This document shows positions 39,001 to 42,000 of a DNA stretch of 64,000 nt, one piece after another; position 1 is the stretch's first letter, and each line of letters begins with the position of its first letter. The stretch lies in the NCBI RefSeq assembly GCF_056746865.1, contig NZ_CM163382.1, one strand, 5' to 3'. A program made the position numbers.

Positions 39001-42000
39001 TGAGTCTTCTTGCCTGAGTATTAGGACGGTAACCGCGTCGACGAGCTTCAGCTTCCACCCGTGCACGGGTGGAAGCTGACACATCTGCATAGCCTCCAAG
39101 AGCCCGACTGACAGTGGTGACAGAAACTCCGAGTGCAGTGGCAATCGCCTTAAGTGACATATTATCTCCTGCTAATTATTATAGTAGACCGTCCCCCTAA
39201 ATCTCCAGACAACCAATATCACTTATTGTAAGTTAACGGAATCCCTCTGATCTGTAAGATCAGAGGGAAAGGTTATTGATTGTGAGAATAATTTCAGGAC
39301 AAAGTGTAATTAACTCTCCTGGATGGAAAGTGAATCAATGTAGTCAGCGTACCATTGCATCATTTCACGGCGACCATCGAGATACAGGGCATGATTATAG
39401 GTACCCCTGATGGAATTTTTATCCACATGAGCTAACTGCATTTCAATCCAGGCAGAATTAAAGCCCTGTTCGTGCAGAATGGTACTCATGGTGTGACGAA
39501 AACCATGACCGGTTGCCCTGCCATCGTAACCGATACGTTTGAGCACCATATTGATGCTGGCTTCGCTCATTGGCTTGTTGATATCACAACGTCCCGGGAA
39601 AACCAGCCGGTATTGTCCGGAGAAAGTTTTGAGCTGCAGCAGAATGTCAGTGGCCTGTCGTGACAGTGGTACGACATGTTTACGTCGCATTTTCATGCGG
39701 CTTTCAGGGATTGTCCACAGGGCATTATCAAAATCAATTTCTGACCATTCAGCGGACCGTAGTTCAATCGTTCTGAGGCCTGTCAGAAGCAGCAGATTTG
39801 TCGCCATGCGGGTAACAGGACTGCCATGATATTCAGCGAGCTTCCGGAGAAAAACAGGGAGCTCATCTGCTCTCAGGTGGGGGAAATGTGCAGCTTTTGG
39901 CGCCGCCAGCGTACTGGTCAGTTCAGATGCCGGATTGACAGTGGCTCGTCCGGTGGCGATGGCATAACGAAAAATCTGATTACAGTATTGACGCACCTTA
40001 CGAAGTTTTTCCAGCGAGCCACGTTTTTCTATGCGGCGCAGAATTTCCAGCATTTCCAGCGGGAGGATATCAGTAACGCTTCGTTTGCCCAGATACGGGA
40101 AAATATCTTTATCCAGAGCCTCCAGTACGCTTCTGGCGTAACTTTCAGACCATGACAAAGATTTATGCTGATGCCATTCCGTAGCAAGGGCATGGAACGT
40201 ATTGGTGGCAGAGATTTTCTGAGTGAGTTTTTCCTTTCGCTTCTTTTCGCCCGGGTCGCCACCTTCGGAGATAATTTTTCGGGCATCGTCGCGTTTGATT
40301 CTGGCTTCAGCAAGGGAGACGTCGGGATAGACGCCGAGGGCCAGTTTTTTCTCTTTTCCTGCTATCCGGTATTTAAGCCGCCAGTAGCGGGCACCCGTGG
40401 TTTTTACCAGCAGATATAAACCACGTTCGTCAGAGAGTTTATAGTCTTTTTCTTTAGGTCTGGCTGTTTCGACCTGTCTGGCTGTAAGTGCCATATGGGG
40501 GCTCCTGAAACTGACTGAACACAATGAGCCCCCACCGGTGCCCCCAATGAACGCTTGATTGAGAGAGAGTTCAGTAGAGTTCGGTGGAGTTCAGGATGTT
40601 CAGATTGCTTGTAACGATGTGATTATACTTGAGTTTCGTGGAGTTCGGGAGATGAATCTGGAAGTGAAAGTGGTGCCCGGACTCGGAATCGAACCAAGGA
40701 CACGGGGATTTTCAATCCCCTGCTCTACCGACTGAGCTATCCGGGCAACGGGGCGCATTAAACCGTAATCTGCACATCTCGTCAACCTAATTTCAGTAAA
40801 AGCGATTCAACTGCTTAAGATTGCGGCAAATCGCTTCTTTTCTGTGTTTCTGTCAGGTCAGTGCGCCACCCTGGCGGCAGCGAGCGAAGCGCAGGATATC
40901 TTCTGCCAGCCGATGTGCGGTGTCGACATCCGCCTGGCTACGATTCACCAGCATTCGGCTTAAACAGCCTTCCAGCACCAGTTCCATCTGCTTTGCTACC
41001 ATCGCCGGATCGTCAACTTCCAGCGTGGTTAACAGTTCGTGGGTGAAATCGTAGGCCGCGCTTTTTTGCTGATCGGCCAGTTGATGAATAGGGTGGCCAG
41101 GATCGGGATAAAACGTACAGGCAGCGATAAACAGACAGCCCGGATAGCGGTTGTTTTTAACGCACTCCGATAACGCCTGATAACGTGCCAGCAGCTTTTG
41201 TTCGGCGGTTTGCGTTTCGTCCAGCATCAGCTGACGACGCCAGACATCTATCTGTTGGCTAAGATAACGCAGCGCATCGTAGAGGATTGCCTCTTTGTCT
41301 GGCCAGAAACGGCGCAGCTCGTCCAGTGGATAATCCACACGTTCAGCAACCATCTCCAGCGTGGTGTTGGCAATCCCTTGTAATTCTAATAATTTCAGGG
41401 CTTCTCCCAGTACATCTTCACGTTGCACGCTATTTTCCTCCGTCTTTCCCACTGCAAGTGTCGTTCACGGTTGGCGATCGCGCAAATGTGCGCTGAAGGT
41501 TTCAGCATCCATAAAGCCCGTGACGCGTGCTTGTGGATGCTCCTGGCCTTGTCCGTCAAAAAAGAGAATTGTCGGTAGGCCAAGGACATTAAGATGCTTT
41601 AACAGCGCCACATCTTGTGCGTCGTTGGCAGTGACGTTGGCCTGAAGTAATACCGTGTCTGCTAACGCTTTTTGCACCTGCGGGTCGCTGAAGGTGTATT
41701 TCTCAAACTCTTTACAGGCGACGCACCAGTCGGCATAGAGATCTAACATCACCGGTTTGCCTTTGGCTTCAACGAGCGCCTGATTTAACTCATCTACCGT
41801 TTTGATTTGTGTAAAGTTGAGATGCGTCTGAGTTTGCGCGGTATGCGTCGCACCAAATGCCCAATCCTGAAGTGGGCGCACGCTAACTAATGCCGCTGCC
41901 AGCAGGATTATTTGCACCACGCGCATCCAGCCGCGTTTGGCCTGTAGGCTGGTGATAAAGGCCCAGCCAAAGAATGCGACACCAAGCGCCGACCACAAGC

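Follow-up and report, generated by a model that had tools for sequence, protein, structure and literature searches.

The region around the single tRNA gene of the window, as the whole 64,000-nucleotide stretch of DNA analysed is called here, is very probably the integrase end of a composite genomic island that was inserted site-specifically into the 3' end of pheU. The island is real, and it is an ordinary, already described kind of element. ARAGORN and Rfam identified tRNA-Phe(GAA) as the sole tRNA of the 64-kb window (Table 1), and comparison of the printed sequences demonstrated that this gene was intact and identical to K-12 pheU. It was assigned to pheU and not to pheV because its right flank consists of core genes in the order dicD (yjdC)-dsbD-cutA-dcuA-aspA.

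Sequence homology with K-12 and with 118UI, a strain of the same lineage, was found to end at the 3' end of the tRNA. Of 5426 complete E. coli genomes, 5402 contained the right flank. For either half of the left 40.7 kb, coverage of at least 80% was reached in only 11 of the 5426, and not one of these genomes covered both island halves as the exact mosaic. The GC content of the left part was 0.36-0.52 vs about 0.47-0.56 in the right flank. IS1, IS2, an IS3-family element and three IS629/IS1203 copies were located to the left of the tRNA, and according to our own tally of the mapped elements, approximately one-fifth of the left 40.7 kb is IS-derived. The initial annotation, which had placed an island boundary at pheU with accessory, IS-rich DNA on its left and core genes on its right, was thus borne out.

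Comparison with an island-free strain, which the same annotation had suggested, indicated insertion and not an ancestral state: in 118UI, the 23-kb right flank is 100% identical, and cadC-pheU-dicD has no insert. Precise excision could in principle produce empty sites in relatives, but nothing specific points to this, and it is exceedingly improbable that the 40 kb is ancestral and was deleted in the comparators. The boundary lies exactly at the tRNA 3' end beside an integrase, the GC content drops to 0.36 on the left (about 0.47-0.56 in the right flank), and unrelated strains carry this integrase, its arm and the cargo at pheV and selC. Moreover, the empty sites retain a cadC-pheU interval of 617 bp, which in K-12 holds an older integrase fossil. 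Even the 'empty' pheU site of K-12 is thus a fossil, left by an earlier intP4 island and consisting of yjdQ and a spacer.

Table 1. Features of the window in order from left to right.
Feature	Position	Strand	Basis or remark
Leftmost island DNA	1-2204		IS2 cut by the window edge, 1-1253; cytochrome b562 gene, 1414-1821 (-)
Older cargo block	2205-26083		Members listed below in window order
IS1	2205-2972		
relB-like gene	3181-3687		
Type I restriction-modification hsdM	3754-5733		
Type I restriction-modification hsdS	5733-7019		
hsdR	from 7019		Split by IS629 at 9705-11015
Kiwa defence genes kwaA and kwaB	11568-12964		
rhuM			Split by IS629 at 13364-14674
mobI-like gene	15405-15791		
Degenerate IS3-family element	16482-17824		
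IS1203	18679-19988		
nanY	20387-21505		
nanX	21517-22734		
Group II intron fragment	24022-24161		
Phosphoethanolamine transferase, truncated	24455-25678		
Canonical intP4 fossil	26084-26265	(-)	Last ~60 codons
Integrase-proximal cargo common to pheV and selC islands	26478-30304		Pfam, homologous loci
tia	26478-27233	(+)	
Phosphoethanolamine transferase	27408-28910	(+)	
TPR protein	29270-30304	(-)	
IS1 and IS2 fragments	30299-31068		Left edge of raf module
Raffinose operon	31569-39160	(-)	Pfam and RefSeq annotation of identical loci
rafY (glycoporin)	31569-32963	(-)	
rafD (GH32 invertase)	33158-34588	(-)	
rafB (LacY-type permease)	34588-35865	(-)	
rafA (alpha-galactosidase)	35928-38054	(-)	
rafR	38150-39160	(-)	
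IS2 terminal inverted-repeat remnant, 41 bp	39185-39225		Between rafR and integrase stop; right edge of raf module
P4-family tyrosine integrase, 394 aa, intact	39310-40494	(-)	Pfam domains; 100% identical to WP_001218742.1
Island arm, 176 bp, tRNA to integrase start	40495-40670	(-)	Motif scans, folding
Last 19 nt of tRNA, ATTCCGAGTCCGGGCACCA	40671-40689	(-)	Putative crossover region, attachment-site core on the tRNA side
tRNA-Phe(GAA), pheU	40671-40746	(-)	ARAGORN and Rfam; flank genes; 3' part is the integration target
Core chromosome	40747-64000		dicD/yjdC 40853-41452 (-), dsbD 41465-43243 (-), cutA, dcuA, aspA ... frdABCD, yjeM

The ORF of the integrase (39310-40524, minus strand) opens at TTG; the annotated homologue WP_001218742.1 (394 aa) places the start at the ATG at 40494, which is preceded by AGGAG, and 394 of 394 residues are identical between the two proteins. 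The gene has no internal stop, and the Pfam domains PF13356 (Arm-DNA-bind_3), PF22022 (Phage_int_M) and PF00589 (Phage_integrase) all scored above their cut-offs. Active-site motifs with R241, H330-x-x-R333, H356 and Y366 were present, as assigned by motif and not by structure alignment. The integrase and the tRNA are co-oriented, both on the minus strand, with 176 bp between 40494 and 40671. An intact integrase gene ending at this distance from the tRNA-Phe 3' end had been described in the initial annotation; the distance was correct, but it is the start (5' end) of the gene, not its end, that faces the tRNA.

The description of the enzyme as P4-type holds at the family level. Phage P4 Int is a full-length homologue with the same domain order (40.6% identity over residues 1-387, 98% of the length, E = 4e-89), and its gene likewise lies beside a tRNA 3' end. 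The best PDB matches were CP4-like and CPS-53 integrase domain structures, and the score on NCBIfam NF007246 was 309 bits, below the 434-bit cut-off of that model. A refinement was nevertheless required, as the protein is not a canonical intP4 product (about 41% amino acid identity). It shares 40-41% of its amino acids with the integrases of CFT073, APEC O1, H10407, 55989 and Sakai, which are mutually 96-99% identical. Membership in the canonical intP4.1-intP4.5 clade was rejected, since the clade requires at least approximately 94% nucleotide identity and this integrase is only 40-41% identical at the amino acid level. The integrase of SMS-3-5 has been reported as an outlier with 46.3% nucleotide conservation (PMC11537424). 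In the annotation of SMS-3-5 pheV, WP_001218742.1 is accompanied by WP_000053331.1 and WP_000253907.1, that is, the same integrase adjoined by rafR and rafA. Judged by sequence similarity, therefore, the integrase is a P4-family enzyme of the less studied SMS-3-5 type and not the canonical intP4 of the pheV-island literature.

Phage P4 itself differs from the island in its tRNA target, and no replication, capsid-size or packaging genes were found in the window; P4 integrates into a leucine tRNA gene. A P4-like satellite prophage was rejected as a candidate, as the annotated homologous loci covering the island part of the window contain no primase/helicase, capsid-size or regulatory genes. For the part of the island inside the window, an integrative and conjugative element, such as ICEEc2 at pheV/pheU, was also rejected. 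A conjugation module (type IV secretion system, relaxase, coupling protein) was absent from the annotated homologous loci covering positions 1-40670, and this part of the window holds only a lone mobI-like gene.

The distribution of the integrase was determined with two junction-specific queries. The SMS-3-5-type integrase was found at pheU in 196 and at pheV in 333 of the 5426 genomes. A broader query matched 506 genomes, but pheV copies also cover 94% of that query, so this number is not a count of pheU occupancy. The identical integrase protein occurs at pheU in NZ_CM142673 and Ec-FL1-1X and at pheV in strain 165 and SMS-3-5. Because pheU and pheV are identical genes, it may be concluded that both serve as sites for this integrase. 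The islands found at the two loci have been described as IS-separated mosaics with a common integrase (PMC7686366, PMC11537424).

The 19-nt sequence ATTCCGAGTCCGGGCACCA at the end of the tRNA recurs exactly at the distal end of related islands that carry this integrase and is therefore the probable crossover region. No second copy of the tRNA 3' end was detected in the 64 kb when a 23-mer with up to 3 mismatches, a 15-mer with up to 2 mismatches, the published 22-mer variant, which lacks one G, and a fuzzy search with 4 edits were used. The only other hits, two 12-mers with one edit (at 27430 and 34055), were rejected as chance matches on the wrong strand and inside coding genes. Therefore, the island passes the left edge of the window, in which accessory DNA amounts to at least 40,670 bp. 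This agrees with the earlier expectation of an island of at least 40.6 kb whose distal repeat lies beyond the window; a tRNA 3'-end copy delimiting a smaller element was not found within it, and the distal arm of the relatives was absent as well.

In the relatives, the far ends could be read directly. The pheU island of NZ_CM142673 (69,257 bp) ends in the distal repeat TTTCATTCCGAGTCCGGGCACCA and the pheV island of SMS-3-5 (91,940 bp) in TTTTATTCCGAGTCCGGGCACCA; in both, a common arm of approximately 270 bp is followed by the 19-nt core and then by the locus-specific flank. The pheU island of Ec-FL1-1X exceeds 100 kb (100 kb was followed and the end was not reached), and the pheV island of AR13438 exceeds 90 kb (90 kb followed, end not reached). 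Related islands range in length from 69 kb to over 100 kb, with the 19-nt repeat at their end. Distal repeats of phe islands are tabulated in PMC11537424 (Table 1 of that paper), where 34% of the surveyed pheV islands had no recognisable distal repeat. On the pheV side, the flank past the distal repeat is CTATTCTAAAGAACCCGCTCACAAGGCGGG, with kps or yghD further on.

We infer that the integrase recombines a core of approximately 19-23 bp on the circular island with the identical tRNA-Phe 3' end. Such integration would regenerate the tRNA, would leave the integrase 176 bp downstream in the same orientation, and should deposit a partial copy of the tRNA at the far end, presumably in the neighbourhood of cadC. 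After ordinary integration at pheU, the far end would read ...GGTTATATAACCAGTTT[C/T]ATTCCGAGTCCGGGCACCA or ...CCAGTTT[C/T]ATTCCGAGTCCGGGCACCA, beyond which AATTCATATAAACGGACCTCCACGGAGGTCC / AATTCATATAAACGGACCTCC, then yjdQ and cadC, would be expected.

Four groups of known elements resemble the island. SMS-3-5_GI-pheV (91.9 kb; PMC11537424, Table 1) has the same integrase protein, the same 176-bp gap, and rafR and rafA adjoining the integrase; its distal repeat contains the 19-nt core, and window positions 2205-19987 match elsewhere on the SMS-3-5 chromosome at 99.7%. It differs in its site, pheV instead of pheU, and the window has two extra IS629 copies. The pheU island of UID2309220031 (NZ_CM142673.1; 69,257 bp) occupies the same site, with 100% identity across 1.7 kb of junction sequence. 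Integrase, raf module and TPR gene are shared as well, window positions 29000-43103 matching at 99.2%, and the architecture of this island is complete: the distal arm is followed by TTTCATTCCGAGTCCGGGCACCA, an integrase remnant and cadC. To the left of about window position 29000 it differs, except for a diverged tia region (26097-27234, 79.7% identity); its cargo includes another restriction-modification system, remnants of pap, and floR, tet(A), sul2 and strAB as resistance genes. The chromosome belongs to a slightly different lineage (99.6% over the flank). An AlpA-like gene is located in the distal part of this island, outside the part covered by the window.

Canonical intP4.1-4.5 islands (CFT073, APEC O1, H10407, 55989, Sakai SpLE3/OI-122) share the same tRNA-Phe 3'-end target at both pheV and pheU. 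Canonical GI-pheV and GI-pheU have an integrase adjoining the tRNA, IS-separated modules and repeats of 19 or 23 bp (PMC11537424, PMC7686366), and the nan, tia and phosphoethanolamine transferase modules are common to the window and these islands. However, their integrases comprise 420-421 aa (394 in the window), and their spacer of 197 bp (176 in the window) is of unrelated sequence and has a AAACGGACCTCCACGGAGGTCCGTTTTT hairpin, which the arm in the window does not have. A terminator-like hairpin follows tRNA-Phe in empty sites as well as in canonical intP4 islands, and integration of the SMS-3-5 type would remove it. Finally, in selC islands of the Tia-PAI/SHI-2/GIselC17584/1 type (PMC6174562), e.g. 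that of ApSLC23 (NZ_CM196105.1), the 28-kb block running from IS1 to the TPR gene (window positions 2205-30298) recurs with 99.9% identity, two extra IS629 copies in the window aside. In ApSLC23, the TPR gene adjoins the integrase as in the raf-less layout, and the integrases are 62% identical, that of the selC island being CP4-like. The selC islands differ in their tRNA-Sec target, in their integrase and arm, and in having no raf module.

The likeness of the cargo to islands at other loci bears on how the island reached pheU. The identical genes pheV and pheU are inversely oriented and lie on opposite sides of oriC. Recombination between an occupied pheV and an unoccupied pheU, whether homologous or through the integrase, would invert the oriC segment and bring the integrase end of a pheV island beside dicD/yjdC. 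Had the island arrived in this way, its far end would adjoin the distal flank of pheV and not cadC. In other strains, the closest matches to both halves of the island part of the window are located at pheV or selC and not at pheU. The one complete genome of the same lineage whose pheU is occupied shares the integrase-raf module alone, and pheU is unoccupied in at least one of the other complete genomes, at least 30 in number, whose flank is 100% identical. The same integrase and core serve both sites, and movement between pheU and pheV within one clone was suggested previously (PMC7686366). Nevertheless, such an inversion is very unlikely. Nothing in the window separates it from ordinary integration; for integrases of this type, insertion at pheU with a distal repeat adjoining cadC is on record; homologous exchange of modules explains pheV- and selC-like cargo without any inversion; and the orientations and positions of the two genes are those of the K-12 map. 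Ordinary integration at pheU therefore remains the preferred reading.

The island is composite, with several elements stacked and shuffled, and the intP4 fossil marks an old internal boundary. This fossil (26084-26265) is 87% identical at the nucleotide level to CFT073 intP4, is a homologue of K-12 yjdQ, and retains motifs matching by position the second catalytic His and the Tyr; no att copy was found beside it in the window. In the assembly order that we infer, an older canonical-intP4 island, now represented by the fossil at 26.1 kb and by the nan, restriction-modification and Kiwa cargo, would have come first, and it would lie on the distal side of a younger block that comprises the integrase, the TPR gene, the phosphoethanolamine transferase gene and tia. 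The raffinose operon would then have been wedged between the integrase and the TPR gene through IS1/IS2 events. In islands without raf, the TPR gene directly adjoins the integrase, and the 41-bp IS2 remnant (39185-39225) pairs with the IS2 end at 1213-1253. The last events were probably the disruptions of hsdR and rhuM by two IS629 copies, which are identical to each other and have target-site duplications. Exact-protein look-ups of the two truncated products, HsdR' and RhuM', which should be peculiar to the strain, matched no recorded protein.

This IS activity raises the possibility that the island is a fixed, immobile remnant that lost its distal repeat and/or directionality factor through IS deletions, so that the boundary is a scar. 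This possibility deserves attention but is doubtful. Approximately one-fifth of the left 40.7 kb is IS-derived, with hsdR and rhuM freshly disrupted; no att copy is left beside the internal integrase fossil; and a third of published pheV islands have no distal repeat. Excisionase/AlpA-like genes and the usual distal module (YfjI, DUF932, antirestriction, RadC and CbtA/CbeA genes) were all absent from the window, so that present-day mobility is only putative, and tblastn of the window with the AlpA-like protein and nine distal-module proteins of the UID2309220031 pheU island gave no hits. However, in that relative the AlpA-like gene is located in the distal part, beyond the reach of the window. 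The integrase is free of defects, and hundreds of genomes encode exactly this protein at one or other of the two loci. Its arm and core match, at 100% identity, those of NZ_CM142673, which has a complete island with the 19-nt repeat.

The 176-bp arm contains every exact GAGTTCRG of the window, four copies between 40567 and 40648, three of them at 10-bp spacing, together with degenerate copies at 40631 and about 40597. Three TGGGGGC motifs are located at 40495-40547. On the basis of their clustering and position, these repeats are putative binding sites for the integrase or an accessory protein. A TATAAT hexamer (40622-40627, minus strand) and the AGGAG ribosome-binding site also lie in the arm; a consensus scan of the minus strand of the pheU-integrase interval detected neither a promoter nor a terminator. 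The predicted RNA fold of the arm was only slightly more stable than that of shuffled sequence (z = -2.05). A 9-bp stem in this predicted fold overlaps the ribosome-binding site of the integrase.

Given that no terminator-like hairpin was predicted in the arm and that the tRNA and integrase genes point the same way, transcription from the strong, growth-rate-regulated pheU promoter could conceivably read through into the integrase gene, with the stem at the ribosome-binding site as a possible translational check, but we regard this as unlikely. If it were true, excision of the island or its relocation between pheU and pheV would be coupled to host tRNA transcription.

These findings leave the current understanding of such islands unchanged, and their consequences concern annotation: the integrase is to be described as SMS-3-5 type, the island as composite, and the pheU site of K-12 as the scar of an old island. 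Islands in tRNA-Phe genes are one of the principal means for E. coli to acquire genes for virulence, metabolism, defence and resistance, and the correct boundary therefore matters for annotating the genome. In the present case, the cargo acquired comprises raffinose use, uptake and hydration of a sialic acid derivative (nanXY), the Tia invasin, an inactivated type I restriction system and Kiwa.

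The only tRNA gene in the 64-kb window, a tRNA-Phe(GAA) gene identified by ARAGORN with the agreement of Rfam, was identical to K-12 pheU when the two sequences were compared by eye. To its right were dicD (yjdC), dsbD, cutA, dcuA, aspA and further core genes, and this neighbourhood is that of pheU, not that of pheV. The integrase ORF to its left begins with TTG in the ORF list; however, the RefSeq homologue WP_001218742.1 has 394 aa, which places the start at the ATG at 40494, with AGGAG upstream, 176 bp from the tRNA 3' end (40671). The two genes are co-oriented. The initial annotation had the integrase gene ending 176 bp from the tRNA; the distance was correct, but it is the start of the gene that faces the tRNA.

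Features of the window (positions in nt)
Feature	Position	Strand	Remarks
IS2	1-1253		clipped at window edge
IS1	2205-2972
IS629/IS1203	9705-11015		in hsdR
kwaA, kwaB	11568-12964	+	Kiwa anti-phage pair
IS629/IS1203	13364-14674		in rhuM
IS629/IS1203	18679-19988		third copy
Degenerate IS3-family element	left part of window
Group II intron fragment, D1-D4	24022-24161	+	Rfam RF02003, 67 bits
Phosphoethanolamine transferase gene	24576-25749
Integrase fossil	26084-26265	-
Phosphoethanolamine transferase gene	27721-28894
IS1 and IS2 debris	30299-31068
raf operon	31569-39160
IS2 end, 41 bp	39185-39225		lone terminal repeat
Integrase ORF	39310-40524	-	TTG start
TGGGGGC motifs (three)	40495-40547
Integrase leader stem	40496-40534	-
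GAGTTCRG motifs (four)	40567-40648		within 82 bp
tRNA-Phe(GAA)	40671-40746	-
19-nt common core	40671-40689		last 19 nt of tRNA
Guanidine-II (mini-ykkC) riboswitch	54616-54662	+
126-aa ORF	54617-54997	+

Of 5426 complete E. coli genomes, 5402 covered at least 80% of the 23-kb flank right of the tRNA. At the same coverage, positions 1-25000 and 20000-41000 were each found in only 11 of these genomes, and the two sets did not overlap. By our own tally of the listed elements, mobile elements accounted for roughly one-fifth of the 40.7 kb on the left. The GC content fell to 0.36 left of the tRNA and was about 0.47-0.56 right of it. The view that accessory, IS-rich DNA gives way to core genes at the tRNA was thus borne out. 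Homology to K-12 began at 40665, six bases past the tRNA 3' end; because only four of these six matched, the true break lies either at this 3' end or within it. In the core flank, a guanidine-II riboswitch was found where a 126-aa ORF begins. This ORF is presumably sugE/gdx, as on the K-12 map, in which case the riboswitch arrangement is a known one.

The right flank was 100% identical over 23,254 bp in at least 30 complete genomes. One of them, 118UI, provided the comparison with an island-free strain proposed in the initial annotation: here, 617 bp separate cadC from pheU, dicD comes next, and the site contains no insertion. Among the genomes with this integrase type at pheU, only Ec-FL1-1X shared the flank lineage (99.9% over 24.8 kb); it had the integrase-raf-IS1 module alone in common with the window, after which the cargo diverged. 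Because the site is empty in 118UI and the sole occupied relative matches only in part, it may be concluded that the insertion is recent and sporadic within this lineage.

A second copy of the tRNA 3' end, which could have bounded a smaller element, was sought in the window and not found, whether with the last 23 nt (up to three mismatches), the last 15 nt (up to two), the published 22-nt variant lacking one G, or a fuzzy search allowing four substitutions or indels. The window also contained neither the 1.5 kb preceding the distal repeat of a related island, nor an AlpA-like gene, nor the usual distal module (YfjI, DUF932, antirestriction, RadC, CbtA/CbeA and DUF4942). Since the distal repeat, arm and module are all missing, the island continues past position 1 and has a minimum length of 40,670 bp, in agreement with the earlier estimate of at least 40.6 kb with the repeat outside the window.

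Three Pfam domains (Arm-DNA-bind_3, Phage_int_M and Phage_integrase), each above its cut-off, were found in the integrase, as were motifs with R241, H330-x-x-R333, H356 and Y366; these residues were assigned from the motifs rather than by alignment with a known structure. The top solved-structure matches were domains of CP4-like and CPS-53 integrases. The protein was 46.4% identical to phage Sf6 Int and 40.6% identical to phage P4 Int, with 98% of the length aligned, so that the designation "P4-type" was right at the family level. However, the canonical pheV integrases of CFT073, APEC O1, H10407, 55989 and Sakai, the "intP4.1-4.5" alleles of PMC11537424, were only 40-41% identical to it; these proteins are 420-421 aa long, mutually 96-99% identical and start 197 bp past the tRNA, whereas the corresponding values for the window are 394 aa and 176 bp. 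The SMS-3-5 integrase, an outlier with 46.3% nucleotide conservation that was omitted from the published tree (PMC11537424), has the same protein accession as that of the window and is followed directly by the same rafR and rafA. A selC-associated integrase was 62% identical.

The integrase was identical at 394 of 394 residues to proteins located at pheU (NZ_CM142673 and Ec-FL1-1X) and at pheV (strain 165). Sites were counted with two junction queries, for which 80% coverage required the integrase to be contiguous with the locus-specific flank; this integrase type was found at pheU in 196 and at pheV in 333 of the 5426 genomes. The same two-site behaviour was described for papGII islands (PMC7686366). 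The pheU island of NZ_CM142673 (69,257 bp) ended with TTTCATTCCGAGTCCGGGCACCA; beyond this came AATTCATATAAACGGACCTCC..., an integrase remnant and cadC. The pheV island of SMS-3-5 (91,940 bp; PMC11537424) ended with TTTTATTCCGAGTCCGGGCACCA, next to pheV-side sequence. The approximately 270 bp inside both islands before the repeat was nearly identical, the sequence past the repeat was locus-specific, and the exact common core was the last 19 nt of the tRNA. Such a combination of like arm, core and locus-specific flank is the signature of site-specific recombination, in which a circular element would recombine with the tRNA-Phe 3' end, presumably through the 19-nt core and by the catalytic steps established for tyrosine recombinases.

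All four exact GAGTTCRG motifs of the window, against a chance expectation of about 2.8, were located in the arm between pheU and the integrase; three were spaced at 10 bp, and two degenerate copies were also present. Three TGGGGGC motifs were found there as well. NZ_CM142673 had one TGGGGGC 76 bp ahead of its distal repeat, and the canonical intP4 and selC spacers each had one related motif (CCGAACTC and CTGAACTC, respectively). Both motifs are putative protein-binding sites of the attachment region. The canonical intP4 spacer opens with a hairpin, AAACGGACCTCCACGGAGGTCCGTTTTT, whereas no terminator-like hairpin was predicted in the minus-strand sequence linking pheU to the integrase of the window, so that read-through from pheU is possible. 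A perfectly paired stem of 9 bp (TGGGGGCTC/GAGCCCCCA), located in the leader of the integrase gene, overlaps the ribosome-binding site (AGGAG) and may add translational control.

The island is composite. The integrase fossil, comprising the last approximately 60 codons of the canonical intP4 type (87% nucleotide and about 90% protein identity to the CFT073 intP4 C-terminus), marks an older island boundary; a fuzzy search of the window gave no tRNA-like (att) repeat beside it. The K-12 gene yjdQ, which adjoins pheU (K-12 locus L004, 7192-7551), is a relic of this integrase family in a more advanced state of decay, and the 197-bp pheU-yjdQ spacer matches the canonical tRNA-integrase spacer of pheV islands (comparator loci L010-L014). 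This relic and spacer argue that the "empty" K-12 site is an old intP4 island scar and not a pristine site. Newer islands insert between the tRNA and the old scar. The spacer match extends over the hairpin that is commonly interpreted as the terminator of pheU.

The two phosphoethanolamine transferase genes, one of them truncated, were 92% identical, and each is located beyond an integrase, or a fossil of one, as seen from the tRNA, which fits the stacking of two related elements. Their scores for the NCBIfam MCR families were far short of the cut-offs, and they are therefore not known colistin-resistance alleles. The segment 2205-30298, from IS1 to a TPR gene, was 99.9% identical in the selC island of NZ_CM196105 (strain ApSLC23), when the two additional IS629 copies of the window are disregarded. 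In that island, the TPR gene abuts the selC integrase, and in the pheV island of AR13438 it abuts a phe integrase 98.7% identical to that of the window, whereas in the window and strain 165 raf lies between them. The raf operon is an insertion between the integrase and the TPR gene as its usual neighbour. Its flanks, an IS2 end towards the integrase and, on the opposite side, IS1/IS2 debris that also lies beyond raf in NZ_CM142673 and Ec-FL1-1X, suggest capture of the module by an IS-mediated event. The raffinose operon is classically plasmid-borne. At pheU, the integrase-raf anchor was accompanied by sil/pco, tet(B) and aph genes in Ec-FL1-1X (loci L008 and L015) and by floR, tet(A), sul2 and strAB in UID2309220031 (loci L001 and L007), in islands of 69 kb to more than 100 kb.

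The IS629 copies in hsdR and rhuM were 100% identical to each other, with 3-bp target duplications (ATA and AAG); the third copy was 99.8% identical and had no duplication. The first two were missing at the same sites in the same-cargo comparators AR13438 and ApSLC23, and these insertions are recent; it is therefore probable that the type I restriction enzyme lost its function not long ago. The Kiwa pair directly follows the type I restriction-modification operon. No reverse transcriptase gene adjacent to the group II intron fragment was found in the window.

There are good published descriptions (PMC11537424, PMC7686366, PMC6174562) of islands at pheU and pheV in which a P4-family integrase adjoins the tRNA, the repeats measure 19 or 23 bp and IS elements separate the modules. 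The pheU junction of the window was 100% identical to that of a public genome, and its integrase was identical to the protein of hundreds of genomes. The reading of this site as a pheU island boundary is therefore supported, and the boundary is real, ordinary and already explained. Specific to the window are the two fresh IS629 insertions and the way in which modules are combined at pheU, not reproduced by any of the 5426 complete genomes. Ordinary integration predicts that the far end of the island adjoins cadC; if it adjoins the pheV flank, pheV and pheU would have undergone an exchange or inversion.
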